Counted from the whole stretch's first letter, positions 46 through 59,000 are shown. The stretch is 59,372 nucleotides of DNA, filler included, from Sphacelaria rigidula (GCA_964200075.2; 9 parts of 9 records of this genome joined end to end with filler, not necessarily neighbours in it), one strand, 5' to 3'. Program-made: numbers and translations. The notes: generated by a model not told the origin, from the sequence alone.

Positions 46-98
<53 letters not shown>
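1..98 (+). mobile_element. 3' end of a non-LTR retroposon family ending GGGATGACAAC plus a (CA)n tail
   Basis: Similar to copies at ~34640-34915 (+), ~15555-15800 (-) and ~38225-38470 (-), most of which end at CA/CAA-like tracts. (CA)n spans 47-98. Confidence 0.6.
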
Positions 99-101
<3 letters not shown>

Positions 102-342
102 TGGTACTGGGCTTGGCAACGGCTCGAAAAAAGACAGACAGTGAGAGCACCCTTTTCTGTAAATAAACCAGGAGGGTACACCCTGCTCTGCTTAAAAATG
201 ATTTCTTAACCTTTGCACTCCTTGTGGACCAGTTGAAAATGGTAACCCGTTTTTCGGTTTGGAGCGCGGCGCTGTGCTGCACGCGGATTGAACATGTCGA
301 AAGCACGTTGCATCGCCTCAGGCCCATGCACAAGGTGTCTGA

Positions 343-2745: not shown

Positions 2746-3461
2746 CAAGGTCTGTCGAGGGAAAAGTTTCGGACACGTAGCCCCCCCCCCCCCCTCCCCC
2801 CTCCCGGATGCTCCGTCTCGAAAGGGATGCGTGGTCAACGGTCACACGACTAAGGTAAGCAACAAATTAGTACGCGCCCCCACCCCTCCCGGAGGGCAAG
2901 TTTTCGAAAATTGTCATGCTTTTGACGTTTTGTGTTTGTAATTGTTTTGTGATTTTTTTTCATTGGTTGTTGACATTGGTTGTTGAAATTGATCAACAAA
3001 CACTGACAAAACCCGCAAAGTCTGGCGCGCTTTGCGAGATTTGCTTTTGCTCCTTGTCCGCCCTGTCCCGATGACCTCGGATGCCGGTAACGCTCACACA
3101 TATATATGTACAATACACGACCGCACGGTAGCGACAGCCTGTAGCCAAAATAGCAACATTATCCCACGCCTCGCCAAATTTGCCCGGACTACTAGTGGGT
3201 GGTAGCCGAGGCACACGACACGAGAGATAATCCCATAAATGCGTTCATGGTAGGTGATAAGCTTGGAGGAGCGGTGTGTCCTTCATCTCAGCGGTCTCCA
3301 TGCCAAGGTTCTCTGTACACGGCAGCTGACCGCACCCGCCGACGCCTCGGCAGTAAACTAGGGGACAGCGGGCTGGGTATCCCCCCCCCCCTCCCCTCAA
3401 AAACTCGAATCTTCGATCTTGAGGCCTACGTGTCTCGAAATATATTTTTGACAGACCCTTG
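2746..3461. mobile_element. Non-autonomous DNA transposon with CAAGG(G)TCTGTC TIRs and an apparent 2-bp TSD (GT); second copy at 6204-6508, cut by the contig end
   Basis: Left end CAAGGTCTGTC...TTTCGGACACGTAGC versus right-end reverse complement CAAGGGTCTGTC...TTTCGAGACACGTAGGC. GT lies on both sides. Clear paralogue at 6204-6508. Confidence 0.7.
2809..2874 (+). mobile_element. Short C-tailed retroposon-like element (family A)
   Basis: TGCTCCGTCTCGAAAGGGATGCG...AGTACG, flanked by a direct repeat (C)nTCCCGGA. Absent from the paralogous host site at ~6241-6256. Confidence 0.75.
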
Positions 3462-4236: not shown

Positions 4237-4288
<52 letters not shown>

Positions 4289-4290
<2 letters not shown>

Positions 4291-4353
4291 ACTCATTGGA
4301 TGCTGGCCTGAGTCGTTTGACCATTGACCACGCATCCCTTTCGAGACGGAGCA
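4289..4353 (-). mobile_element. Family A element with a ~50-nt poly(C) tail (G-run 4238-4289 on +)
   Basis: Matches the family A consensus. Imperfect TSD CGGTGGCGGGGGGG / TGGCGGCGGGGGGG. Confidence 0.7.
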
Positions 4354-6508
4354 TGGCGGCGGGGGGGCGAGTTGAGGGGGAGGATAAAAGTCCTTGCGTG
4401 TGTCTGTGTTCCACGAGATATTGGCTTAACCAACGGTCCCGCCCGCCCGTCTGCTCTCGGAGTATTCATTTATTCGTATTTTACTGTGTGACCAATTTGG
4501 TATAATAACTTCCTTGGACGTTCGGTAACCCCCCCGTGACTCTTGTTGTGAGCAGTTCATTGTGCAGTTCTTGTTGTACTATGTTGTGTGGTGCTCTAGG
4601 CCGTGTAGTTATTAATTAGTCGTGAAAAGAGATGGGAGGGGTGAGGGAAGTGGGGGGTACGGCTGATCGCAACGGGAAACGAATGGGGAAATCACTCTCC
4701 CCCGTGGCGACCGCGTGTAACCGTTTAATCTTATGTCGCCAGAAGCTAGTTTCGATCCTTTTTTCGTGTTTCATGCGGCAGTATCTGTCTTTCACTCATA
4801 CATTTTTCCGAGTTACCGACAAAACGCACGGAGGTACTTCAGCGTCGGTGTGTAAAGTCGGCAGGAAATTGTACTTGGGGAACGGACTGCAATGTAGGTC
4901 AAGCGCTACAACGTAGTACCGAATGAACTTGAAAATAATTACGATAGAAGGAGTCCACCGGTTCGGTGCTACGATCCGGCAAAATGGTCAAACTTCGGGG
5001 ATCCAGAAAGCTTGTTTACACTGTGCAGTAACTGTGGATATTCTGTACGTACTGGGGAATAGTGACCCCGGCTCATCATGCGCCCCCACACACCGAAGGG
5101 TATAACACTGGCGTCCAGAATAAATGGGATGACCACACCACAACAAACACATTGAGGAGTAGCACACCACGCGAACTCATAGGAAGCACATCAACAGCAT
5201 CGCATTGAGATAATCACGAGGTTGGCATCTTGGGGGAAAACCGGTGCGATAAGTTTGACATAGAGTTATGTTGATATTGTACTGTGTAGATGGAGGGAGG
5301 GCGGGGATAGCGGGGCAGGGGAACCATGTGGGCACGGCATAGAGTGCATCCTCTACGGAAGGCAGGAGTAGTAGATGAACTTTAAGAATTTAGCAGCGGT
5401 GACATCGGGTGCTCGGAATTTAGTTGGCGGTAGTTATTCTCCTTATTATTATTATTTCCGCGCATTAGTCCGATCTCGCAAACCCGTGGTCACAGACGTA
5501 GGCTCACCTTTCCAATACCGTCCCTGCTATTCCTTACAAGACATATTACCAAAAATAAAAAGGAGAAGAGAGACGCCACGAAAACCGGTGAGACGTAGGT
5601 CCCCCGACTTCAACGGGGAGAAAAAAGAAAGAAAGAAAAACAAACAAACGAAAAAACAAACAACAAACGCCAGATCTGCTAAAATATACAGTACACCGAA
5701 AGGAAGGAAGGGAGAAGATAATAAAGGACGAACAGGAAACGACAGGTGACACGAGGAGATTAGCATGGCCACCATGTTAGGGTTCAACTCAAGAACAAAA
5801 AAAACAAGCCCAGGCACCCCCATAGACGGCTACCACAGCTGTTCGGAGAGAGGTGGTGAATGTACCAGCGAGTGCACTGCCCGAATTATAGTATTTCGAG
5901 GAACTTATGTTGTGCGTATGCTCCAGGATGTCACGTATGCGATAATTCCTGGGCGTTTCATGTGAAGCTAGGTCGTCTTGCTCACGAGGACAATGTTCGT
6001 GTTTATTTCAAGTTGATTTCAAGCAAACGAAACTGTTGGAATCCAACGCATACTGTAGCCACACACGTGACCACTTGATAAGCTAGCAATCGTCAGTGTT
6101 GAACGACACTCATCAACATGAATCTGCCAATATAGGGATATATGCATTCATGTACTGTTAACGTTCCCAAAGAAAGAGTGGGCCCAAAAGACACGTCGCA
6201 GGCCAAGGTTCTGTCTAGAGAAATTGTCGAAACACGGAGCGCCCCCCCCTCCCGGCTAGCAAGTTTTCGAAAATTGTCATAAATAGTTTTTCGTCATCTC
6301 TTGTGAAGATTTTCAATTGTTTGTTGATGTTGTTAAAAGAAATTGATCAACAAACACCGACAAAAACCGGAAAGTCTGGCGGGCTTTGCGAGGTTCGTAT
6401 ATTTGCTTCTGCTCCTTGCCCACCCTGTCCCGATGACCTCGGATGCCGGTAACGCTCACACACATCTATGTACAATACACGACCACACGGTAGCGACAGC
6501 CTGTAGCC

Positions 6509-7430: not shown

Positions 7431-7481
7431 GGCCACCGCACGGGGGAAAAAAACGTTGATTCCGGAGGAACTATATCAAAT

Positions 7482-7915
7482 GAGTCATCCTACGATAGGG
7501 GGGGGGGGGGGGGGCGAAGCTTCCTTTACTATGTTTCCTATGCCTGTACATCAACATCCACTCCNNNNNNNNNNGCGGGGGTGCCGCGGTGCCGGGGGGC
7601 GCGTGGTGGGCGGGGGGGGGCGTACTCATTTGTTGCTTGCCTTAGTCGTTTGACCATTGACCACGCATCCCTTTCGAGACGGAGCGGGGGTGTTTGGTTG
7701 CCCGAAAAAAGGAGGCTCATTGGTGCGTCAGACGACCTGCCACACTCGCTGTGTGCTTGAATTCGGTTTCAAGCGGTGCCAAGCAGTACAAATAAATGTT
7801 ATTCATTCATAGCAAGCTCGCTCGAACAAGCATTGCTGCTTTCAACGCCAAATTGACTAGGAACTTCGTGCGAGAAGTGGCCCAAAACACCCCCCCCTCT
7901 ATCGTAGGATAAGTC
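7482..7915. mobile_element. MITE with GA(G/C)N5CTACGATAG termini and 4-bp TSD AAAT; carries a family A insertion at 7621-7685
   Basis: GAGTCATCCTACGATAG(G)n ... (C)nTCTATCGTAGGATAAGTC. AAAT at 7478-7481 and 7916-7919. Confidence 0.7.
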
Positions 7916-19824: not shown

Positions 19825-21358
19825 GAAATGACTCTCCTAACCCGAGGGAAGGTGTCCGCTTTGGGTCCGTTCAAGCTGTCGAAGATACTGTCGAGCAGGA
19901 GCAGCTCTCAAAGCGATATTTCAACGACACAGACGAGTTGGGCCGTGATCCGTATATCGATGAAGGGGAAGGTACCCATCTGCTCAAAAATTCGGGCCAA
20001 TTGTTTCTCGTCGAGTAAACCCCATGTATAGTAATTCCTGTACCTAGCGGAGATAGCGTCCGGACTAAAATCTATATGAAACCCCGAACGATCGATCAAG
20101 CGGATGATGACGATTTTTGGTGTAGACCTTCCTTGGAGCACGGGGAGACGATATATACCCTCACTTTTACCTAATTCGTTATCCATCTCGAGAAATGGCG
20201 CACATACGGTTTTATAATAAAATCAGTATATTACGAGCAGAGGCACTAGATAACCTAAATCTGGATATCACGTCTCAGTTTTTGAGAGTTGTGCTGACAC
20301 TTTCTACGATAGTCCCCCCCCCAAAAGAGTGCATAGTTTTGGGAGGCAAAATCTTCACGTAAATCGNNNNNNNNNCTTGGGTTCGTTCTAGCCAATGTCG
20401 CCAATATGAGGCGCTTTATGCAGCCTGAAGCCGAACATCAGGCGCTGTATAGCCATTTTTTTCGTGACACTTTGAGCTGTGTTTTTTTGGGGGGGGTCTA
20501 TCGTAGAAAGTGTCTGCTTTGAAATTTGGTATGGAGAACCGCTAGTGCATGATGAAATTTAAAACACAGCCTTTTCGGGTTGTTTTCGTTTTTTCCTCAT
20601 ATTTTTTCGTGTTTTTAGGGGGGTTATGAAGAGAAATGAACATTGCTCTTGGGCCTCATCTCACTTTTTAGAATTGCGATTCGAAACTTGGCATGGAGAA
20701 CGACGGAGGTATGCTGAGTAGAGGAAAAAAAATGAGCTTTCACTTTCTTTTCTTTTTTCATGAGAGGTTCGGGCGCTCTCGCAAAAAATTGGTAGCTACC
20801 ATACTAAAAAGCCCTCAATCAGTGAAAAAATATAATGAAAGCCAACCTCCCCCCTTTTTCTTGGTTCATCACGACCTAGGAAGGTCCCGCACTAAGTTTC
20901 AACCCACCAACACCAAACGTGGGCCAATAAACGGCCTGCAAAATACTGTTCCGATTTCCCGCCGCCTCGGTTTTGTTAAGGTGAATTTGCATTTTTCCTC
21001 TTGAAGTTGGAAAGTGAAATTTGGTATGGACAATCAGTTCTGGTAAAATGCCCTCAACTCACGAAAAAAATAAAATCGCCGGGACATTACAGACAGCTTT
21101 TCTTCATGCCCCCTTGATTGTCCATGCCAAATTTCACTTTTCAACTCCAAGAAAAAAATCGCGAATTCGCCTGCAGAGTACAAATCCGCTTGTAGGCTGG
21201 CCCAGCCTGTAATTTTTTTCTTCTTCGCTGCTGTCGTGATCTTCGGCATTTTGATCATGAAAAGCTACTGTCAAAATTTCAGCGACCAACTCCTAATATC
21301 GCGCTGTGCGTCGCCTGAGCCAAATTCACTCCCACTCTTGGCTGGTCCAGCTCGTAGT
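19825..21358 (+). mobile_element. Long non-coding interspersed repeat, possibly Helitron-like. Homologues at ~56631-57800 (-) and 46257-46535 (+, 3' end)
   Basis: Shared blocks include GAAGGGGAAGGTACCCAT and ATAAACGGCCTG. Ends with a short hairpin GGCTGG(T/C)CCAGC followed by (C/T)CGTAG. Confidence 0.5.
20296..20514. mobile_element. MITE with GACACTTTCTACGATAG TIR and 4-bp TSD TGCT
   Basis: Perfect 17-bp TIR. TSD at 20292-20295 and 20515-20518. Confidence 0.88.
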
Positions 21359-22467
21359 CGAATTCCATCTCGTTTCATTTCTTGTCTTCGGACATGTGGT
21401 ACTACTCTTCTCTTACTTTACTGCTTCAGGCAACAACGCCTGAATAGAGAGGTGGAACGCGATCTTGTCGACCCCCCTGCTTTCCTCACCTACTACAGTC
21501 TACGGATACCTCAAGTTTGGTTTTCCCTGTGGCCGGCGAGTCAATGTGACCAACACGCCTCCATGTACCGTCATGCTCGCCCAGTTTGAATTGCCATTTT
21601 AATTATCAAAACTTGGACCGCGAGGGTAGCCTATCTGGATCATGCATATTTTTCTCCAAGTGAAATTGATGCCAATTCAACAGTGCCCTTCCTACCCTCG
21701 TCATCCAGAGGTTAACGGACAATGAAATGGCTCAATTTGGTCAGTAAAACGTCGTCAAGTTGGCGAATTCTTTCGGTGAATCGTACGGGCTGGGGGGGGG
21801 GAAGGGAAAATTTATTCTCGCACTGCAAAAAGGGACAAATCCAGGGGGATTGAAAACGAACATCTGCCAAATCTTCACCTTCCTGTCACCAAGAGTTTCG
21901 TCGTGGACTCGAATTTTATTGAACCCATGGATTCGCTTCTCGGCGAACGGTTACCAGCTACCTGCATTTCCTGAAACGGTCCAATACTCGCAAAATCGAA
22001 AACTTCCCGTATTGCTTTCGTGGGGGAAAAAGAATACCGATATTATCCCGCTCGTTCCGAGTATATCTTTTGCGTCCTTACTTCATCCACAGCCGGCAAA
22101 TAGACACGATCTTCGTGTACGAAAACGCCTCCGTCGGTTTTCGAAATTTCGAATCTTACGACCCGACGGCACAAATGCCCCAAAACCAATCGCCGCAACA
22201 AAACAAAACGTGTCCCAAACTTTCCCCCTCCTCACCCTCTGTTCACTACCCATCTCTTCGAACAGATCAAATGAGTCCTTGCAGATAAGATCTCCGTCAT
22301 ACGACGAACGGTGAGATTTCATAGCCCTTCTCCCGTGACGCAACACCACACACGCTCACAAAAAACACATATTTATTCAACAAGCAGGTACACCCAAACG
22401 ATCGGGCACATTGTTTCAGGGTATGTGTGTGCAGCAGCGCGCGGGGCGGCGGAGGGGGGGGGGGGAT

Positions 22468-22572
22468 ATACTCGTGATCTTGCATGCCGTACTAGAGAGA
22501 CCATTGACCTCGCATCCCCACGACGCTGAGACGGAGCACGCCGGGTTTCGCCGGACCAGGCTCGTGATCACC
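22468..22572 (-). mobile_element. Truncated family B (long C-tailed) element
   Basis: G-run followed by ATACTCGTGATCTTGCATGCC...GACCATTGACCTCGCATCCC...GAGACGGAGCACGCCGGGTTTCG. Confidence 0.65.
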
Positions 22573-23112: not shown

Positions 23113-23377
23113 GACACTTTCTACGATAGCCCCCCCCCCCCCAAAAAAAAAACCCAGCTAAAAGTGTCACGAAAAAAATGGTCATACAGCGCCTGATATT
23201 CGGCTTCAGGCTGCATGAAGCGCCTCGTATTGGCGACATTGGCTAGAACGAACCCAAGCGTGGGGATTTCCAGCTTCTCGTTGTGCCCGACTTTTCCCAT
23301 TTCGATTCATGTGAAGATTTTGCCTCCCAAAACCATGCACTTTTTTTTGGGGAGGGGGGGCTATCGTAGAAAGTGTC
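23113..23377. mobile_element. MITE with GACACTTTCTACGATAG TIR and 4-bp TSD TTCA, inside the rpl12 intron
   Basis: TSD at 23109-23112 and 23378-23381. Inverted relative to the 20296 copy. Confidence 0.9.
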
Positions 23378-23714: not shown

Positions 23715-24220
23715 GAGTAACCCGTGGCTGTCTCTAGAAGTTGATTTTCCAAAAAATTAAGCAACTCATCGTAGGCTGTCATCCAAATGCAAGATAAATA
23801 GTATGCTTCGGGCCGAACAATCTCAGCAGAATGCAGATCACCCCTCATGAGACTCGCAGAACACACCACAGCGCTTCGCGCTCAGTGACTACGAGTCTGG
23901 TCCCGCGAAAACCCGGCGTGCTCCGTCCCGGCTTTGGAGGTGTGCAGGGTCAATGGTCATATGACTACGACACGTAGGATCATGAGTACACCCCCCGCCC
24001 CTTCCGTCTCGACAGGGATAGGTGGTCAATGGCCAAACAACTGAGGCAAGCATAAAATGAGTACGTCCCGAAGCGTACTAATTATCTCGCATATGGATGA
24101 CAGCCTTTACTGGGTTGCTTCATTTTCTAGTATCACCACGTCCAGAGAGGGGCTCATCCTAAGAGGGGAGGGGGGGGGGTACTCATGATCATGCATGCCA
24201 TAGTCATAACACCATTGTTC
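23715..24220. mobile_element. Cluster of family B and A elements: B (+, ~23715-23990), A (+, ~24003-24065) and B fragments (-, ~24067-24220)
   Basis: Similar to 53338-53714. Units end ATGAGTAC next to C-runs or G-runs. Confidence 0.65.
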
Positions 24221-28132: not shown

Positions 28133-29370
28133 TAGGCTTTAGTTCCGTATGCGCGCATTAAGCTTGGCTTAATTTCGTTTTTTTAGCTTAAATAGGCCTG
28201 TTTAGCGCAAAGCTTATAATCGGCTTAATACGCTTGAAACGAGCTTAACTTGCTTGAAGCGCGCATAAAACGCGCATAAAGTTGCGGATTGTTTTGCTCG
28301 CGAGCGCTCCATGCGGCGTAACTCGTCACCAGACAGCCGACAAGCGTCAGGCTTTAGGCTCGAACCCTCAATACTTCAAATTTCCATGGTCATGTTCCGT
28401 GTTCCTATTCTGTTGCGGGTCTGATGAGCAGACTACTCAATTTTATATTTAATACACACGGTACTATGTTGCTTTCGAAAATGTGACTAGATTCAAAACA
28501 AATATACACTTGTACTTTGTGCAGCAGACAGCAGACAGCAGTAGTAACAGCAGCACAACAGAGAGAAGTGATATCAAGTGATGACAGCGTTTGTAACTCA
28601 CGAGGTCATGGCGGACCTACTGTCCGAGAAGGACGACCTTTTGGTTGCGGCCTCAGGCGCGCCCTCGGAGTACTGTTTGCTGTCATTTTGAGATGACAAG
28701 AAGAACAGGCTTCCCAGTTGGTATCTTACGGCGATAAATATTGTACTTACTCAGCCGTCGTCTGCGTCTATGGAGCGAGTGCTTTCGATTTTGAGGGGGT
28801 GCTTGAACTCCCCGCAGAAGAAGGCGTTTACCGGCTCGAATTTGCAGTTATGATGAAGTACAATCGGTACCGGTAGTTCGACAAGATTTTGAATTTCGAC
28901 TGACGGTTAATAATGCAGGGGGGAGGTTGTGGTAGCTTGAAGCCTGTAGCTTGCCGGGCGAGAGGCCAAAGGCTGCAATGCCCTGTGTCTAGAGGCTACA
29001 ATGCCGTACTGCTGTATCAAGTATTGCAAGTGTAGTGTCATTTGTTGTTTCCGCACGTGGGTTTGGGTGTAGGTGTGCAGGTTGTTGTCTCCAACCTCAA
29101 TAACTGAAGAAAAGCTTCATTTTTTTATTTTAAATAGTCAACAAAACGTCGAATGCCCGACTTGTCGTCTTCTCCTCATGCTAGAAGGCGCGCCTCGTGA
29201 GGGGATACTGCCACAACCCCACGACAAGGACGGGAATAAGGCGCATAAAACGCGCCTAATTTGCGCTAAAACAGCTTAAAACGGGGCCAAAAACAAAAAT
29301 AAAAAACTTATTGTAAAAAAAAATGGAGCATAATTTCAAGAAAAAAGCGCGCATACGGAACTAAAGCCTA
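28133..29370 (+). mobile_element. hAT DNA transposon (non-autonomous) nested in the Gypsy integrase
   Basis: 24-bp perfect TIR TAGGCTTTAGTTCCGTATGCGCGC. Perfect 8-bp TSD ATGCAGAC at 28125-28132 and 29371-29378. Confidence 0.93.
28671..28876 (+). pseudogene. hAT transposase C-terminal dimerisation-domain remnant
   Basis: LSF*DDKKNRLPSWYLTAINIVLTQPSSASMERVLS, then after a frameshift RLEFAVMMKYNR. This matches the hAT W...P......P.SSA..ER.FS motif. Confidence 0.8.
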
Positions 29371-29378
29371 ATGCAGAC

Positions 29379-29965
29379 ACCGGTCGTCTCTGTTTCGACA
29401 AAATGGATCGCAACGCACGAATAACCTCTTTCACCATGTGTTCACAAGCATCATTTGACCAAGGGGTATACGCAACAGCAAATTGGTGCTGCACCTTGAG
29501 CGCGTCGCTCAGCTGCGCGATCACTCGGTTCTTGAAGTGCGTGGCGGTATCCCTAACCCACACACGCGGCACCCTCAAAGTCTTGCACCAATGGAGCAAG
29601 GGCTTAGCCGTTACCTCGGCGGTGCGAGCCTCGGTCGGCTCCAAGCAAACGAAATTGGACAAATCATCCATGGTGACCAAAATATACCGAAAACCATCCT
29701 CATCAGGGGAACCATTAGCACCTTCAGGTCCGCTACTTCCGACGTACAGAAAATCGAAGTGAACAACTTCACCATGCACAGTATCGCCATACGGACGAGG
29801 TACAATTGCACCAGCACGAGTGTCTACACAACGCAAACACTGGCGAACGAACTCGCGAACGTGGGAATCCATGTGAGGTCACACCCAGTATTCTTTCAAA
29901 CGGAACAGAGTCGGCGCCACCCCACGGTGACCAGCCGACCGCATGTGAGCGCACACCATCAAGCG
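29379..29965 (-). pseudogene. Gypsy integrase zinc finger and catalytic core
   Basis: ORF 29336..29872 plus upstream HMRSAGHRG, which is separated by a stop. Confidence 0.9.
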
Positions 29966-32861: not shown

Positions 32862-32899
<38 letters not shown>

Positions 32900-35800
32900 A
32901 CACCCACCCACCCCACCACCACCCCCCCCTTCGCCTCACCNNNNNNNNNNNNNNNNNNNNNNNNNNNNNNNNNNNNNNNNNNNNTTAATTAATTAANNNN
33001 NNNNNNNNNNNNNNNNNNNNNNNNNNNNNNNNNNNNNNNNGATTCATTCACTGATTGACCGCTTTTCACTCTCAATCGTATCATCTACTCTCAATCTCAC
33101 GAAAACCCTGTTACTTTCATTTTCTTGAAACTTTCTCGTGATTTTGATTTTGACTTTTTTTCCACTTGCGGTTTGTTTTTCCTGCTCCTTTGCTATATTC
33201 GATGGTTTATGTTTTCCGTTTTTATGGGTCGTGTTCCATATCTGGGTAACTACGGCCGTCTTGTTAACATGGCTGGCTTTGTAGCGGACTGATTAATATG
33301 TGATTATTTATCAATCAAATCAATACGTTCAAGGAAGGGACTTGATCAACCTCAGGCCGGTACCCAGCCCACGCCCACCTGCCGATAATGGGGAATTATC
33401 TCGAGGGAATGTTATCTTCCCTGCTTCTTCGACAGTATGCACAACCGAGCAAGGTCTTCACCGCCCACAGTCCGCCTGTACGTGAGCTGCTCAAACCGAG
33501 GAGTTTTCGCCTCCTTCGCAGCCCAAAACCGACGAGATTTCGCTGCCTTCGGATTCACGGTTCGACCGCGGGTCTGAACGAAATGGATGATGTGAAGAAA
33601 ATATGTGCCCGTGTACTCACGACTGACTGTCGGTAGCGGTGTTGTACTATACTGTACTGTACTGTACTGCACTAATTGGCCCTCACTTTGACCGTGCAGG
33701 CAAGTGCTTCCTGGTCCCGGACCGTCAAATTCAAACAAAAAAATCCTGCTGACTGAATTGTACTGTGTTGGATACCAGAGTACTGAATTATATCCGGATC
33801 ATCCTTTGGGTCGTTAGTGAGGAAAATATGTCAAAAACGCCTTATCCTTCCTGTTGCTTTGCCAGTGCGTGCGATGGGGAAATGCATTTACCATCTGCAG
33901 CTCGCCTGTGCGTCAGCACCACAAAAGTGAGGCGACTTCGCTGCCCGCGATTTTGGTGTTCGGCCACGGGTCTGAACAAAAAGGCTGATGTGTAGATACT
34001 GTAAAATCAAAAATTGCCGTTAGAGCTCATCTTCGTTTTGGTTCGGAACCAACTGAGTGAAATCCCGGTAGTGGTGCCTGAAGTCGTAGTACCTGCACAA
34101 CGATCGAACTCGTGCCAACACCAATCGATCAAAAGAACCGAAAATACGTTCAACCATTGTTCCGGACCTATATGGTTGAAGTATCATGCCGAGGTCTGTG
34201 GTCAGCACCTCATTTTTTGTGTCAACCATTTTTCAGATGATTTGGTAAACAACCCTCTCGTATGTCGTTGCTACAGAAAATATTCCAAACTCTTTTGGTT
34301 GATAATGGCGTGGGGATCGCGGAATATTCCGTCTTTCTTTCGCACTTCATTGTTCTCCCAAGCTGAACTACAAAAGCCTAGGTCCACGACAGGGAAAACG
34401 AGACTCTCCGAACTGCCATACCCCCCGAAGTTGACTCGGTGCTTCTGTGTTGGGACCCGTTTCTCCTCTGTGTTCTGGTGTCCATACACGAACTGTATGT
34501 GAGTGTCCATGTCCACAAACGAAAAAGGCGTTTCAGTATTCATCACGAGCCGGTCGCCCCGGTGATTCAGTTGGTCACCTCGGGACCTTTTGACGGTTGG
34601 GTCGTGCGTTCGAATATCTGAGCGATCTAGGATTTTGTCTCACACAATGTATCAAAATACCCAATAGTGGGGAGCGATTTTGTCGGGGTACACAAAATTC
34701 GACCTAATCGTCAACGAGGGAAAGGGATTGCTGAGGCGTCTCGCGATTAAAAATAAAGGCAAGCACTGCAGAAGGAAGGTGGAGAACCAGCACATGACAA
34801 GAGACAACAAAACGAAACTCCTCTGTTGGCTTCCCTCCTGTGTGACCCCGGCTGGTGCGCCCACATATACCAAAAGGTGCAGACTGGGGTGCAGAACAGA
34901 TGGGATGACAACACCACTTCCACGTTAGATCGTCTATGCCTTGAGTTTATTTTTCGAATGAAGTGGTGCCGATGCAACAGGTAGGTGATGTACTTGCAGA
35001 GATCACCAGTTGGTGGGACACGACCGTTGTAACTTGAATTTAGTTCAAAAACCGATATCCGAACCTTTAGAGGGGCTGACAGTCGCAATTGCTCCTGGCT
35101 CGTCCAGAACGTGCTTTCGTCTAAATCGGTGCCGCGGGCGCCGGTTTCGAGGTTTGCAAGCGCACACTTTACCTCGGAAACCTCTCGTACCCCTTGTTTC
35201 CGAGGGCATCCTTATGTAATCGTCGGAATTAGGGTTGGGGCTAGCGTTGGGGCTGGCGGCATCTCATTTCTAGTACTAACCAACCATTATGTGGGGTAAT
35301 CTCCTCTGGGTATCCTGCGCAAAGGGTTGAAGTGTGAAGTTGTGGGGACACGTACCCCTCGTTGTTTTCCCGCGGTGGGATCCAGATCTCCAAAGCCAGA
35401 AATCAGGTTTTCAAACACGTATACATACGAAGAACCCTGTACGGTCCAGTTCAGTTGGAAGAATACTGCAACCAACCATGTAAGTATAGGCGATGGTTCG
35501 CCGAAAACAACGTCAACGCAACCAAAAACGACGCGGTTTTTCCGCCGAAGGCAAGGACTCAGTAATACCAATTTCTCAAAACTGAACGAGAACAAGGAGG
35601 AAAGGAAACGGGAAGGATTTCCAAGCTAGCTATTCTTCTCTTGGGAAATGGTTGAAAAAAGTGGAAATATACTGACCTGTTTTTGGAAATAATTATTCCG
35701 TGCTTTCTCGAAACTTTTCTAGGAATACCAGACACGAGTAGTCGTAGTGTATCGTCCTGCGCCTCTTTTCTGGCCCCCTTTCACGTCACACAGAATTTTG

Positions 35801-52500: not shown

Positions 52501-52676
52501 ACGTATGGTTGGCTTCTCTTTTTCATGTCTGTGTCAGGGATGTGTCATGATGGGTGGAAAAAAGATGGTTGTATTTTTGATTTCATGTCTACGTCTAGGC
52601 TGTGTTATGGTAGGTTAGAGAGAAAATATTGGTGAGTCTTTAATATCATGTCTGTCCGGGCCGTTTTATTGTAGGC
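46532..52676. repeat. Diverged ~63-bp tandem satellite (~90+ units) with a ~1.95-kb higher-order duplication
   Basis: Approximate consensus ATGTCTATGTCYGGGCTGTGTTATGGTAGGTTGAAGAAAAAGGATGGTTAGCTTCYTCATTYC. Unit starts near 47405, 47468, 47531, 47593 and 47656. Block 46532-47260 recurs at ~48481-49240. Confidence 0.95.
50899..51146. mobile_element. GACACTTTCTACGATAG MITE inserted in the satellite
   Basis: Perfect 17-bp TIR. TSD TTTC/GTTC has one mismatch. Confidence 0.88.
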
Positions 52677-52764
52677 GAGTCATGCTACGATAGGGGGTAC
52701 TCATGATCATGCATGCCATAATCATCAGACCATTGACCTCGCATCCCTACAATACCGGGACGGA
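52677..52764 (-). mobile_element. GAGTCATGCTACGATAG MITE end with a family B element at its G-run
   Basis: TIR start as at 7482, then GGGGGTACTCATGATCATGCATGCC...GACCATTGACCTCGCATCCC. Cut by the contig end. Confidence 0.6.
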
Positions 52765-53310: not shown

Positions 53311-53337
53311 GTGGGTGGATGGGGGGAAGGGCCGGGT

Positions 53338-53714
53338 GTACTCATGGTCTTGCATGCCACAGTCAGAAGACCATTGACCTCGCATCCGTACAAAGCCGGG
53401 ATGGAGCACGCCAGGTTTTCGGCGGGCCGGGCTCGCAATCAATCACCAAGCGCGAAGTGCCGTGATGTGTTCGGCGAGTCGCATGAAGGGTGAGCTGCAT
53501 CCTGCTAAGAAAGTTCGGCCCAAAGCCTACTGATTATCTTGCGTTTGGATGTTAGTCTCCCATGCGTTGCTTCATTTTCTAGTATCGCCACTCCCAGAGA
53601 CAGCCACGGGTTACACTGCCTCATCAAGATAACAGGGGGAGGGAGGGGGCGTCTTCATTTGTTGCTTGCCTCAGTCGTTTGACCGTTGACCACTCCTCCC
53701 TTTGGAGGCGAAGC
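53338..53714 (-). mobile_element. Near full-length family B element (~53338-53625) followed by a family A element (53650-53714); partial B at ~53807-53950
   Basis: Both units begin, on the + strand, with a G-rich tract followed by GTACTCAT-like sequence and GACC(A/G)TTGACC. Confidence 0.7.
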
Positions 53715-54482
53715 GCCGTTCCTACTCCTGATAGAGACACCCCCAACGTTCCGGCGCTCATTGTGTTCCTGTCGACATTACACGAAAACCTTTTACATAT
53801 CTCATAAAGGGTGAGCTGCATCCTACTAAGATCGCTCGGCCCAAAACGTACTGATAATCTTGTGTATGCATGGCCGCCTCCCATGCGTTGCTTCTTTTTC
53901 TGGTGTCGACACTTCCAGAGACAGTCACGGGTTACACTACCTCATTAAGTTAGGGGGCGGGGGATCGTGGGGGAGGTATGTTGGGTGGATCACGGTCCTA
54001 GAACACCTACACGCGACAGGCACCGTGTCGCCTAGAATGTCGCCTAGAATGTTCCTCGTGGACAGGATGTACCGTTACCTCGAGTCATTGTCCATTCCCG
54101 TCACAAACACCGTTGTGTTGATGGATTGAAAGGGAGCCGTTTTTTGGGTTGTTTAACATGCTGGAGAAAAAGGGGTATTTTTTTCCGTGAGAGTACAATA
54201 TACTCCCCTAGAGGATCCAGATGCATCTCTATCCGTTGGATCGGTGATTATTTTCACCCCTGGAGAATGACCTGTAGACTACTCCGGTGTCCATCTTTAG
54301 GCGCTCGAAGAGTTGAATGCGAGAGATGCCTTGAGTTTGTACTGACTCGTGGATATACGGAGTGTCGTCGCTTAGTGTCGGTGGAGCATGCTGTTTCCGT
54401 TGGAGAAATACATGTTTTTTGCGGTGAAGCGAGTGCTGTCTTCTGGGTATTATCAACTAAACTATTTTCCCCCTCCGAAATA

Positions 54483-54548
54483 TGCTCCGTCTCGAAAAGG
54501 ATGCGTGTTCCATGGTCAAACGACTAAGGCAAGCAACAAGTGAGTACG
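54483..54548 (+). mobile_element. Family A element with a 13-14-bp TSD CCCCT(C/A)CGAAATA(T)
   Basis: TSD at 54470-54482 and 54549-54561. Confidence 0.8.
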
Positions 54549-55142
54549 CCCCTACGAAATATCTGAATTTTTTCAACCCCGGATAAAGATGTGGTCAATT
54601 GTTGCGATAGAACATAATTGCACTATATCAATTTCAATACCGGGGAGAGATGGGCTGATCCTTTGAGACACAACGGACTCGTCCGGAGAAATGGGAGGGG
54701 TTCAAAGTGCGACAAATCAAGGAATGACAAAATAAAAATCAAGTATAGGGCCTATTGCAATACGCCTATATTTGGTTTACGCCGAGGCTAGAATCAATAT
54801 GCCTTTACTCTAGGCAGTACAGTCTTTTCTATCTCAACCTTTGTTTACATTTGTCCATGTTGTGGAATATTTCGGGAAAATAACAGCTTTTTCTCCGACA
54901 TAATGTGGGTGAAGATTTGTTTTCACCCTGTTGGACAATAGATCAATTCAAGACTGACTTCAGATTTCTCCGAAAAATTTGGCGTGGGATTTTAGTTCAG
55001 CGTTTTGTACTGGGATCAGTCGGGTGAAACTGACACCACATTAGGTCGGGGAAAACGTGGGTTCGATACCCGCCATTTTTTTTTTCTATTTTTCGTTTCT
55101 ATTTTATTTGTCGCCCTTTGAACCCCCCCCCCCTTCCTCGGT

Positions 55143-55212
55143 TGCTCCGTCTCGAAAGGGATGCGTGGTCAATGGTCAAATGACTAAGGCAAGCAACGAA
55201 TGAATGAGTACG
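55143..55212 (+). mobile_element. Family A element with TSD (C)11-12TTCCTCGG
   Basis: TSD at 55123-55141 and 55213-55232. Confidence 0.8.
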
Positions 55213-55918
55213 CCCCCCCCCCCCTTCCTCGGGATGAGTCCGCGGTCTAACAGTCTCAAGGGATCAACCCACCTCTCCCCCGGTACACGCCTTTCATTTT
55301 TGTCTCGCGGATTGGGTCATGACTATCAGCACTCCCGCACCGCGTCAACTCACGTCGAACAAACTAAAGTCAACAACTGCCAGATGCGTCTAGTTTCAAT
55401 CTCTTTGTTCTTGGACCCAACTGATTTCACTCTTCGCAAAAAGAGTATGTGTGGCTGATTTTGTTTTTGACGAGAGTTGACGCCATCCGGGAGAGTGCTG
55501 ATGGTCATGATCCACTCCGCGATGCCGCTTTCCGGGGGAGGTATTGGGTTGATCCCGTCAGACCACGGTCTCGTCCCCAGGAAGGGTAAGGGTTTCAACC
55601 CTTTTTGGATCAGACTCCCAACCACCAGCGGTTAACTCACCCCTGGTGTGCACGCAGGGTCCATCAATGTGAATCGGAATATTTTTCACTCGTTTTCAAG
55701 TGAAAATGATTCCGATTCACCGAGGGCTCCCTCACCCCCGGCTAGTCCACTCCGGTCCCAAAAGGGTTGAGGTGTGAGATGTGACGTGAAAAAATAAGAA
55801 AAAAATTGACGCATGATGCTGGTGAAGTGTTTTTTCACAAGCACTTTGTCTCGCTGGCCAACTGTCGTCTGTCCGTCTCTCTGCACCCATGCCCCCCCCC
55901 TCCCCCACTCCGACGCAG

Positions 55919-56026
55919 GACGTTGCTGCAGTTGTGTCGTGTACGGCTGCTATCGTCAGACCAACGGAGGGAGACGGACCCGACAGGGGCAAATATTTCC
56001 AGGGCATCAAGTTTTACGAACCGGAG
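55919..56026 (+). CDS. NAD(P)-binding / CIA30-family protein, next exon
   Basis: DVAAVVSCTAAIVRPTEGDGPDRGKYFQGIKFYEPE matches, from recall, the cyanobacterial/plant family motif P.EGDT.DR.KY.QG.KF..PE. CGCAG acceptor and GAG|GTGAAA donor. Confidence 0.88.
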
Positions 56027-59000
56027 GTGAAATCTCGATGTACGGTATGCTTTTGGAAGGGTTTTGATGTCTTCTACCAAAATCTAAATATATCTCATAC
56101 GGTTTGGGTGATAAGAATGGTTGACGGGAATATAGTGGTGAATGGGAACAGGATGGGGTGGGTGGAGTGGTTGATTTTGATCAACGGGTCTGACGAGAGG
56201 GTTGGGATGAGATTGGGTTGGTTCTGGGTGGTTGTTGGACGTTTTTTGTTTTGTTTTGGACAAGAGCAGCACATGAAGAAGGTCGCGTAACAAACGATTT
56301 GTTTGCGCAGGCAGTGTGCTGATGGAAGAGTAGTGAACAGCCATTCTTGAGTTCTCACCCTTCGACGAGGAAGATTTTGAAATATTTACTGCGAAAGCAC
56401 CCGTACCGTGAAAGTCAAGTCGCAAACGCGTACTTTGGTACACTTCATGAACTCACCGGATAATGACTTGTTGGCCATCAAAGGACCAAGCAACAACACC
56501 CCATTCACAGACATATTACAACGGGGGAGCTCAATGTCGGTACAGGCTGCTTCACGCGTTCGACCCCAAATCCACTCATCCGCAAATGTTCACCCCGATT
56601 CTTGGAGTCAGACTCTGAAAAGTTGCACAAATACGGGCTGGGCCGGCCTAGACGCGAATTTGTGGTTCGCAGACCCTATCTCACCTCAATTTTGCGACTT
56701 GAACCTTGAAATTTCGTACGGAGGAAGAATTGGGCATATGCTGAAACGCTGTCGACGGAACGTGTAATTTTTTTTCGAGAGTTTAGGGCAATAATCAGTA
56801 CCTAGTTATCGGGAAAATGCCGTCATCTCACGAAAAAAACAAACACGTCCCGATTGACAGTGTTTTAAGATGCCCTATTTTCCCTCCGTACCAAATTTCA
56901 AAGTCCAACTCGCAAAATTGAGGTAAGACGGGGCTATTAAGAAACCGGGCCGGGCGAAATTCGGAACAACATTTTCCAGGCCGTTTATCGGTCCAGATTT
57001 GGTGCTTGTGTTCTGCATGTTTTTGTGGGACCTCGCTAGGCCATAACCAACCAAAAATAGTGGAGAATACTGATATATATATATATATATATACATGTTT
57101 TTTCATTTGCTTAGAACGCTTTAGAATAGTAAATACCATATTCTCACGAGAAGGCCTGTATCTCTCTCACAAAAAAATGAAGGGCCCATATGTTTTTTTC
57201 CTCCGGCACGCGTTTGCAATTCTCCATGATAAGTTTCAGATCTCAATTCTTGATATTGAGCTGAAGACCCGAGAGCATTGTCGATTTTCCCTTGAATCTG
57301 CCCTGAGAAAAACAAAAATGAAGAAAAACGAAAAACGATGATTTTTTCCATTATGCACTACCGATTTTACACGCGAAAATTTCAAAGCACAGCTCGTAAA
57401 AACGGAGACGCAATATCCAGATTTAGTGCATTGAGTGCCTCTGCTCGAAATGCATTGGCTTTAGTATAGAACCTCATGTGCGCCATATCTCGAGGCAGAT
57501 AACGAATTAGGCAAAAGTGGAGGTAGCGATCGTCTCCCCGTGCTCCAGGGAATGTCCACACCAAAAATCGCCATCATCCGCTCTATATATTGTTTGATTT
57601 TTCATTCAGATTTTGGTATGGACGCTATCTCCGTACGGTATAAGAATGACTAGACATGGGATTTAATCGACGAGAAGAAATTGGCCCAGGCTTTTGAGCA
57701 CATGGGCACCTTCCCCTTGATCAGATGGCTAACACGATGTGCAGATCACGGCCCAATTTGTCTGTTTCGATGAGATTTTGCTATGAGAGCTTAAATCCGC
57801 ATCTAGGTCGACCCAGCTCGTATACCATGGGGCATTCCGAAACTTTCAAGTAATGGGGTTTCTCGATTTTTTATCCAACGGATCTCGGGAGTCCCAGGAT
57901 GCTGGGGAAATAATGCCATTCTTGGACCCCCGAAATCCAGAGAAAAAAACAAGAAACAAAGAAAGCCATTCGGTGAAGGTCCCGGAATGCCCCGTAGCAT
58001 ATATAGTGCAAAATTTTGGAGTCCGATTCCAAGAATCGGCGTGGACACTCGAGCTTTGTGCGACGAAGTGGGCTTGAAATCTTCAAACCGCTAGCTTACT
58101 CCATTTCAATATTGAAGCGGCTTTCCCGGGTACGCTTGGCGTCAATACGACCCCAGTGCATCAATTTTTTTAATTACGCAGCTATAGTTTCGTACACAAT
58201 CGTTCCTTGAACTCCGACGGGGACGCACAACTTTGTTTTATTTTTGTTTTTAGGCATACTCCGTACCGGCTTCCGGTGGTCTTGACACAGGGACCCCCGA
58301 AAGCCGGTAAAAAGGTTGAGAAAAAAAGGTTTTGTAATATTTTCAACATTCCAGTTTATCGACTTTGGAGCATCATTACCTGCCACACTGTCAAGTTTGA
58401 GGGTGGTCGAAGCTTACCGGCGACAGAAGACAAGGAGAACCGTCGGGAGCCTTTCTGGGTCCTTGGTGCATGTCATCTGTGGAAATCCGACGGCGTCAAA
58501 ACCCTACATCAACAAAGTACGACGATTTCGGGTATAACTCGATCTCATGGAAACCGTTTTCAGGAGTGCTTTTCCCGCTAGGTTCCCGAGCTGATAGTGG
58601 TTACTGCAATATACAGCACGCACAAGTTAGGTAAAAATTGGGTTGGGAATTCCGTTTTGAAATTCAGAACAGCATCAAGGCCGCTGATTCGTCGAGGTAC
58701 GTTCTCGCCCTTTTTGTCGCCCTTAGCGCCACCACTATGGTCTTGAACGAAATTTCGGCGTTGTCGCCCTCTTCTGCTGGTCATGGCGGTCAGTGTGATA
58801 CACCATGCGTGCCACAGTTGGGTAGGTATCTTTGAAGGAAGGCAGTTGCTGATGAGTGAATTTTGTGTGGAAAGCGTGAACCTGCCTGTGTAGATTTTGC
58901 GGAATGCTTGGCGCGCAGAAGCGGTGTCGTCCGCTACGAATCGACTTGTGTGTGTTCTTGAACCGCACAGGGTGAATGATGCACACTCTGGACAATGGAC

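Follow-up and report, generated by a model that had tools for sequence, protein, structure and literature searches.

A 66-nt, C-tailed repeat unit of Sphacelaria rigidula is probably the 3′ end of a brown-algal LINE

The window analysed here, a 59,372-nt stretch of Sphacelaria rigidula DNA, consists of nine 6508-bp pieces joined by N44-TTAATTAATTAA-N44 spacers. Its sequence is eukaryotic and mostly non-coding; a Pfam search of 12 long window ORFs returned one weak integrase match and nothing else, and a search with the ORF at 55826–56290 gave just two short hits. Spread over pieces 1, 2, 4 and 9 are seven copies of a 66-nt unit, here numbered c1 to c7 (Table). They were located with a 28-nt consensus core at up to three mismatches (2833+, 4302−, 7635−, 24024+, 53664−, 54507+ and 55167+), a search for which 100 dinucleotide-preserving shuffles gave a mean expectation of 0. 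An HMM built from the copies recovered the same seven with nhmmer, each at E ≤ 2.5e-19. With c3 as the reference, the remaining copies show 2 to 10 mismatches, and c7 has an extra 4-nt internal duplication.

Table. Copies of the 66-nt unit, their target-site duplications (TSDs) and related elements in the window
Feature	Position	Strand	Evidence or remark
c1, tail-only copy	2809..2874	+	core search, nhmmer
c1 TSD	2792-2808 and 2877-2893		15/17 identical
c2 C tail, 52 nt (G52 on + strand)	4238..4289	−	
c2, tail-only copy	4290..4353	−	14-nt TSD, 1 mismatch (13/14)
Paralogous site without insertion (C8 TCCCGG)	6242..6255	+	inside repeat family flanking c1
c3	7621..7686	−	first base C, most other copies T; then C9 at 7612-7620
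B-type tail	22454..22570	−	tail 22480-22538, then C12 (22454-22465)
B-type element	23717..23999	+	diverged tail 23920-23973
c4	24000..24065	+	10 mismatches to c3; directly behind C-rich end of B-type element
B-type tail remnant, then C10	24170..24217	−	
B-type element copy	45148..45410	+	partial tail 45353-45409
B-type tail, cut by end of piece 8	52698..52764	−	
B-type element	53314..53643	−	diverged tail 53339-53390; head-to-tail behind C-rich end of c5 element
c5	53650-53715	−	inside ~310-nt non-autonomous element
~310-nt non-autonomous element including c5	53650..53961	−	~165-nt B-type head + ~125-150 nt LINE 3′ end
c6, tail-only copy	54483..54548	+	core search, nhmmer, comparison with c3
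c6 TSD	54470-54483 and 54549-54562		13/14 identical
c7 TSD, 5′ copy (C11 TTCCTCGG)	55123..55141	+	19/19 identical to 55214-55232
c7, tail-only copy, 70 nt	55143..55212	+	core search, nhmmer, comparison with c3
c7 TSD, 3′ copy	55214..55232	+	merges with apparent C tail

Four of the copies are bounded by direct repeats. Under a single scoring rule with a cut-off score of ≥11, TSDs were detected at c1, c2, c6 and c7 (4/7), compared with 26 of 2000 random window sites that served as the control. All four TSDs open with a C-run and continue into unique sequence that abuts the first base of the unit, and their length is variable (13, 14, 17 and 19 nt). The 5′ end of the unit is the same to within 1 nt in these four copies, and terminal inverted repeats are absent from the ends of the 66-nt unit. 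No TSD was found at the 66-nt boundary of c3, c4 or c5. Around c3, a 6-nt match is the only repeat and an N10 assembly gap lies 46 nt downstream; the upstream side of c5 runs on into longer element sequence. A paralogous site without the insertion could be identified for c1. The repeat that flanks this copy recurs at ~6,150–6,390, where a single C8 TCCCGG replaces the succession of C-run TCCCGGA, unit and C-rich TCCCGGA. Empty alleles of c6 and c7 were not present among the 15 contig joints listed, to which 2009 further joints have to be added.

Directly 3′ of the unit, five of the seven window copies carry a C-run of 4 to 52 nt, whereas c1 is followed by merely C-rich sequence and c4 by no run at all. 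The descriptive claims of the original prediction, made from the sequence alone, were borne out, namely the seven copies (the same in both searches and none in shuffles), their distribution over four contigs, the stretch of ∼50 Cs at 4238–4289 (a real homopolymer of 52 bases), the near-constant 5′ end (exact to within 1 nt where TSDs mark it), the absence of inverted repeats and the C-run-initial direct repeats of 13–19 nt at four copies (19/19, 13/14, 15/17 and 13/14 identical). Set against the C-run of the 5′ TSD, the 3′ run measures 4 vs 5 nt in c6, 12 vs 11 nt in c7 and 52 vs 7 nt in c2. Because the 3′ run of c6 and c7 is, give or take a base, not longer than the run in the TSD, the ‘tail’ of these two copies is indistinguishable from the target duplication, and not all copies give evidence of a separately templated C tail.

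The origin of the unit became apparent from contigs outside the window. Metagenome contigs gave two loci and prokaryote-labelled genome contigs one, while none was detected in viral contigs by any of three patterns. At all three loci (L001, L002 and L003/L005), an ORF that begins upstream reads through the 66-nt unit, which comprises its final 20 codons together with the stop codon and five more bases. The translation ends in ...NGAPSRKGCVVNGQMTKASNK*, after which come GTACG and then C8, C10 or C13. The unit thus forms the extreme 3′ end of a LINE that has almost no 3′ UTR. The LINE tails differ from c3 by one mismatch (L001), one (L002) and two (L003). The third locus carries a single ORF of 1359 aa (L005); because a eukaryote-type LINE sits on it, this prokaryote-labelled contig is probably not bacterial DNA.

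Protein comparisons identified the element that encodes this tail. With the C-terminal 142 residues as query, 22 longer proteins were retrieved; among them are full-length ORFs, 1,360 and 1,328 aa in length, that contain Exo_endo_phos and RVT_1 domains. The E-values for P0003 (1360 aa) were 3.4e-12 for Exo_endo_phos and 9.8e-31 for RVT_1, and both domains are likewise present in P0013. A C-x2-C-x7-H-x4-C motif was recognised by reading upstream of the tail in the LINE ORF. Where homologues are named, they come from Sphacelaria rigidula or Ectocarpus only, both of them brown algae. We therefore assign a probability of roughly 85% to the reading that the 66-nt unit is the 3′-terminal module of a brown-algal LINE with a single ORF, an APE-type endonuclease, an RT and a C-terminal CCHC motif. 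A search for an RT-encoding LINE that matches the consensus at its 3′ end and ends in C had been proposed as a check on the original prediction, and the three outside loci supply exactly such an element. The window itself holds no RT-bearing LINE body detectable by tblastn with P0003; the matches there cover just 19–37 C-terminal residues and fall on four of the copies. Among 14 homologues, the last 21 residues are identical at 263/294 positions, vs 1201/1668 for the preceding ∼120 residues. This excess of conservation in the module fits an added constraint at the nucleic-acid level.

The unit is not the unrecognised SINE family that had originally been proposed: except for its last 5 nt it consists of LINE coding sequence, and it contains no tRNA-, 7SL- or 5S-like part. 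Of the features that define a SINE, the 3′ part in common with a partner LINE is present and the tRNA-, 7SL- or 5S-derived head with its internal RNA polymerase III promoter is absent. ARAGORN detected 0 tRNA genes and Rfam 0 families at gathering score in the window; on L001 and L002, Rfam at E ≤ 10 gave nothing on the module and two weak, unrelated matches outside it. The fixed 5′ end is not explained by any ribozyme or small RNA known to Rfam. At this end of the unit, an HDV-like ribozyme was considered and rejected: reading revealed no P1-type complement to the first bases, and Rfam returned nothing.

The module is not restricted to the LINE. Beyond the seven copies of the unit itself (A-type), nhmmer reported a further six, weaker matches, with E from 7.8e-06 to 2.3; they represent a diverged tail, termed B-type. 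Five of these six end in GAGTA(C) or GAGTAT followed by a C-rich run, and the tail at 45353–45409 is partial and lacks the GAGTA end. B-type tails close non-autonomous elements of about 290–330 nt. The element that includes c5 has a ∼165-nt head in common with the B-type elements and a different tail; c5 is thus no bare LINE fragment but belongs to a B-type head joined to a LINE 3′ end. The likeness between LINE and B-type tails begins at about the first base of the tail-only copies. Elements also stand in head-to-tail order, with the c5 element, a C-rich stretch and a B element in one array, and a B element, a C-rich stretch and c4 in another. A possible 7-nt TSD with one mismatch around the composite of B element and c4 was too weak to argue for template jumping over sequential insertion.

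In every feature that could be compared, this anatomy has a counterpart in Ectocarpus. RTEX-1_Ec32 and RTEX-2_Ec32 (LINE/RTE-X) are entered in the published, curated family table with ‘single EN-RT ORF; (C)n 3'’ and a ‘C-rich’ TSD (PMC12477816). According to the same entries, RTEX-N1_Ec32 and RTEX-N2_Ec32 are short non-autonomous families whose last 60–100 bp are common with the LINEs. RTEX-N1, at 607 bp, ‘can be present in tandem’, has a ‘60 bp 3' end 83%’ to the LINEs and is given as the most abundant family in the Ectocarpus genome; RTEX-N2 measures 188 bp (PMC12477816). The single EN-RT-type ORF of 1359 aa, the C tails, the C-rich TSDs and the brown-algal host are thus the features listed for the RTEX_Ec32 families, and the short partners that have only the LINE 3′ end in common, together with their tandem placement, match RTEX-N1/N2_Ec32. 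On these shared features and the table entries, the Sphacelaria element most likely belongs with the Ectocarpus LINEs RTEX-1/2 in the RTE-X group. At the protein level, the C-terminal region matches an Ectocarpus protein, including 13/15 aligned module-encoded residues, although this named match is just 57% identical over the query. The partners differ in size (607 and 188 bp in the Ectocarpus entries vs ∼300 nt here), and those entries make no mention of 66-nt insertions that comprise the tail only and have a constant 5′ end.

The novelty once claimed for the family has accordingly to be given up: it is already catalogued at family level, inasmuch as the Ectocarpus table entries include (C)n RTE-X LINEs and their partners. 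They also record the C tail and the C-rich TSDs for LINEs of a related alga. A literature search on poly-C-tailed retrotransposons and on RTE-X elements with a poly-C tail yielded no paper that describes a mechanism; passages of PMC10294476 and PMC11005252 do not deal with tails.

Contigs of four sequencing runs were aligned to piece 9 at 80% likeness, and offer a view of the module beyond the window. Public runs that contain piece 9 bear labels that include ‘algae metagenome’, and none of RNA type was listed among them. Three of these runs (X1, X3 and X4) are of DNA type and stem from two studies, X4 from the second; their contig counts on piece 9 are lower bounds. Contigs break at the module start, 55143, in at least 1,217 (X1), at least 868 (X3) and at least 1,086 (X4) cases. 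Over the 30 nt that precede the module start, all three runs have LINE sequence as their consensus, ...GGAGTAGGAACGG, at an agreement of 0.41 (X1), 0.50 (X3) and 0.45 (X4), which indicates that LINE-type upstream contexts are mixed with others. The consensus behind the module is GTACG followed by at least 25 Cs in each of the runs. In X1, this continuation is carried by at least 806 contigs at 55203, at least 675 at 54552 and at least 356 at 55197, with an agreement of 0.48–0.64.

The joints listed for the same three runs connect a tail end to a module start. Contigs in X1, X3 and X4 numbered, respectively, at least 15, at least 6 and at least 10 for 54552→55143; at least 16, at least 7 and at least 13 for 55203→55143; and at least 14, at least 5 and at least 7 for 53334→55143. 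Foreign copies necessarily break at the c7 boundary, so that the contig counts give no share of tail-only copies. The c6 junction and the c7 junction are both present in X4. In X6, whose RNA type is only guessed, the module is again followed by Cs, the loose ends numbering at least 139 before 55143 and at least 73 behind 55203.

Retroposition of the 66-nt copies is supported by the variable TSDs, the lack of terminal inverted repeats and a parent with endonuclease and RT whose identical 3′ end is followed by Cs. Target-primed reverse transcription at G/C runs, as originally envisaged, agrees with TSDs, tails and parent LINE; what has to be dropped from it is the unit as a new SINE. The L1-like priming by microhomology that went with it predicts a C-run at the start of the TSD, and such a run is present. 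In the mechanism that we infer from the copies, TSDs, tails, parent ORF and partner-shared tail, the LINE protein would bind the module on its own RNA and on partner RNAs that carry the same or a diverged module, and its endonuclease would nick the bottom strand where a G-run ends. It is the C-run at the start of 4/4 TSDs that places the first nick there, at the G-run's end opposite this C-run. The freed 3′ end of the G-run could then pair with the terminal Cs of the RNA and prime the cDNA, and a second nick 13–19 or more nt away would leave a variable TSD that starts with the C-run. The run lengths of c6 and c7 are as expected if the 3′ end of the G-run primes at the very junction. Longer runs, up to the 52 nt of c2, may result from slippage or from priming at a more distal point of a long C tail.

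Every insertion of this kind would duplicate a C-run, so the family would make its own targets, and the head-to-tail arrays fit such a cycle. In the copies of 66 nt only, nothing but the module would have been copied; such copies are probably dead-on-arrival insertions made from the RNA of the LINE or a partner, and not a separately transcribed SINE. The module itself, common as it is to the LINE and two partner families, is probably the recognition element of the RT machinery. The stem of a UGGUC-N4-GACUA hairpin is maintained in the diverged B-type tails, in 11–13 of 13 sequences (8 for the closing pair), with a variable loop. The folding z-scores of single sequences were −0.07, 0.52, −0.46 and −1.59, with energies like those of shuffles, and a compensatory change affects one of 11 predicted pairs. 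With shuffle-like energies and near-absent covariation, no proven RNA structure is claimed, and the structural case for the predicted hairpin is weak.

Three known systems help to place this mechanism. L1, together with Alu, has a poly(A) tail and a TT/AAAA target. There as here, the 3′ homopolymer matches the start of a TSD of variable length, priming is modelled on microhomology between target and tail, and non-autonomous passengers are mobilised. The homopolymer is A in L1 and C here, the Sphacelaria element has a single ORF, and it gives no sign of post-transcriptional tail addition. Moreover, LINE and partners have a specific 3′ module in common here, whereas Alu shares the homopolymer only. 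In this respect there is a parallel with stringent-type LINE/SINE pairs such as UnaL2/UnaSINE1 and RTE/Bov-tA, in which LINE and partners also have a conserved 3′ module of ∼60 nt, presumably recognised by the RT, and a very short 3′ UTR. Those pairs end in short microsatellites such as (TGTAA)n and not in a C homopolymer, and they are not known to target homopolymer runs. The Zepp LINEs of Chlorella are L1-type elements with poly(A) that insert into each other's tails. Their arrays also grow by new copies that land in or beside older tails, but the arrays here stand behind C-runs.

The shared 5′ end of the four TSD-bounded copies is contrary to random 5′ truncation. It falls at the very position where the tail in common with the partner elements starts, and it remains unusual. 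Extreme 5′ truncation is usual for LINEs, and the account that we mildly favour is that the copies are ordinary 5′-truncated LINE insertions, their common 5′ end being a preferred stop or template switch of the RT at the edge of the bound module. This account can draw on a parent LINE that exists and whose tail is near-identical to the tail-only copies, on the general habit of LINEs just mentioned and on the other extents of c4 and c5. It is less well served by the boundary itself, where there is no direct evidence of a stop signal and where folding is unexceptional, as it is upstream.

A bolder proposal, which we regard as possible though less likely than not, is that the 66 nt, with their defined 5′ end, act as a ‘retrotransposition tag’ that is sufficient in itself. 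The tag would be the smallest unit that the LINE machinery recognises and copies, served by a G-run-specific endonuclease or priming, a specificity uncharacterised for any LINE in the literature searched. If this were true, tail-only copies beside C-runs would multiply and lengthen G/C tracts across brown-algal genomes, and read-through transcripts would gain a competent 3′ end. It would also explain families with one head and different tails, such as the c5-type and the B-type.

We doubt that the unit is an independent minimal non-autonomous retroposon, for which a discrete RNA with a defined 5′ end, consisting of the 66 nt and Cs, would be transcribed from its own start or processed from longer transcripts and then be copied whole by the LINE machinery. 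Such an RNA would account for the beginning of 4/4 TSD-bounded copies at one base, within 1 nt, and for the choice of that base, which is where LINE and B-type tails become alike; 6/7 A-type window copies indeed lack a continuation into LINE sequence. Neither Rfam nor ARAGORN yielded a promoter or processing signal, however, and no diagnostic difference separates the tail-only copies from the L001–L003 LINE tails, with their one or two mismatches to c3. The sample comprises just four resolved copies, and the consensus before the module start in the sequencing contigs is LINE genome-wide, so many copies are longer. The missing diagnostic difference, along with the failure to find a promoter, tRNA or ribozyme, inclines us to derive the fixed 5′ end from a stop or template switch at the module edge rather than from a short RNA template.

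It is highly improbable that the unit, instead of being a retroposed copy, represents a DNA transposon or MITE, the end of a Helitron or what a deletion has left of a longer element. A short, abundant unit that is at times nested among other repeats might suggest a MITE, but it lacks terminal inverted repeats, its TSD length varies and it constitutes the coding 3′ end of an RT-bearing element; deletion between repeats does not fit, since the non-C part of each TSD abuts the first base of the unit. That the C/G runs are sequencing or assembly artefacts is scarcely credible, for although homopolymers are error-prone and c3 lies close to an assembly gap, the run is always on the same side and strand of the unit, is duplicated with unique sequence in the TSDs and recurs both in the run contigs, which stem from two studies, and in the three unrelated contigs outside the window.

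The LINE 3′ module bears on the homopolymer content of the genome. At a length of ≥8, the window holds 30 C or G runs and 29 A or T runs. Five of the 30 C/G runs are tails of A- or B-type modules (4238, 7612, 55213, 22454 and 24170), two are 5′ TSD copies (2781 and 55123) and the remaining 23 are, on the present evidence, not tied to the LINE-tail family. The suggestion that the family could be generating the abundant G/C tracts is thus only partly borne out, for 7/30 runs of the window, and the family explains part of the unusual G/C homopolymer load in Sphacelaria. Long G/C runs hinder replication and may form G-quadruplexes, so that an element that copies such runs and makes them longer could shape genome stability. 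The system also provides a natural test of whether LINEs choose targets by pairing between tail and nicked target, with C here and A in L1. As the family is already in a curated library, the gain lies in mechanism and not in the catalogue; what merits following up is the constant 5′ end of the tail-only copies, together with the mechanism of priming by G-runs. Some of the 23 untied C/G runs adjoin other repeats.

A recurring motif, T(C)TATCGTAGGATGA..., stands immediately behind C-runs at several sites in the window and on L002, an outside contig that carries the LINE (see table). A looser T(C)TATCGTAGGATGA version (...CTTGATGAGG, ...CTTAGGATGAGCC) opens the heads of the B-type elements, ∼300-nt non-autonomous partners with a diverged module tail, and is also found immediately behind the 3′ target-site duplication of the tail-only module copy c7 (GGGATGAGTCC). 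Non-autonomous partners located behind C-run targets may share this motif as their 5′ head.

The segment immediately 3′ of c7 (55225-55365) is itself highly repeated: it has high depth, summed over the contigs of the sequencing runs, and all DNA-type runs have loose ends at 55253 and 55365. The C-run at which c7 inserted therefore stands in front of another repeat. On the other side, ∼50 nt before c7 begins, positions 55040-55092 hold GGGTTCGATACCCGCC followed by T10. We take GGGTTCGATACCCGCC to resemble a tRNA T-arm or B box; neither ARAGORN nor Rfam called a tRNA at 55040-55092. Just upstream of GGGTTCGATACCCGCC, the bin at 54818-55034 has ∼20-fold the depth of nearby single-copy-looking bins; the stretch at 55040-55092 may therefore belong to a small repeat that ends in pol III fashion.

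Features with C-runs and an integrase-like ORF
Feature	Sequence	Position	Strand	Match
C-run + T(C)TATCGTAGGATGA...	window	7480-7514	-	
C-run + T(C)TATCGTAGGATGA...	window	7890-7915	+	
C-run + T(C)TATCGTAGGATGA...	window	52660-52697	-	
C-run + T(C)TATCGTAGGATGA...	L002	∼68-113	-	
GACACTTTCTACGATAG + C8-13 + A-run	window	20297-20340		
GACACTTTCTACGATAG + C8-13 + A-run	window	20470-20515	-	
GACACTTTCTACGATAG + C8-13 + A-run	window	23113-23170		
ORF, weak integrase core match	window	29336-29878	-	Pfam rve, E 2.1e-07, just below the Pfam cut-off

A 43-nt stretch flanked by C12 and C17 (26451-26522) has an end (...CTTAAGGCAAGCAAAAATCGGAAG) similar to that of the module (...ACTAAGGCAAGCAACAAATGAGTACG), the 66-nt 3′ end of the LINE. 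A third, related type of LINE tail may be represented here by a tail-only copy. The stretch lies so close to the beginning of piece 5 that its upstream context is missing. On L005, the outside contig with a 1,359-aa LINE ORF, a degenerate module-like stretch lies inverted 5′ of that ORF (∼4740-4790, + strand) and reads TGCTCCGTCTC...GTGGTC..GGTC.AATGG..AAGGCA. It could be an old tail-only insertion in inverted orientation; alternatively, it could be a feature of the LINE 5′ region capable of pairing with the 3′ module.

Long C/G runs also occur at piece ends, at 32863-32929 (C37, then a CA/CCA-rich stretch) and 46083-46137 (G28 and G13 adjoining A17-type runs), with no recognisable module upstream of either. 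The integrase-like ORF is probably an LTR-retrotransposon remnant. Finally, a motif of GACACTTTCTACGATAG, C8-13 and an A-run has three copies in the window, two of them followed by ...AAAGTGTCAC; this is a separate repeat family with its own C-run and no tie to the module.
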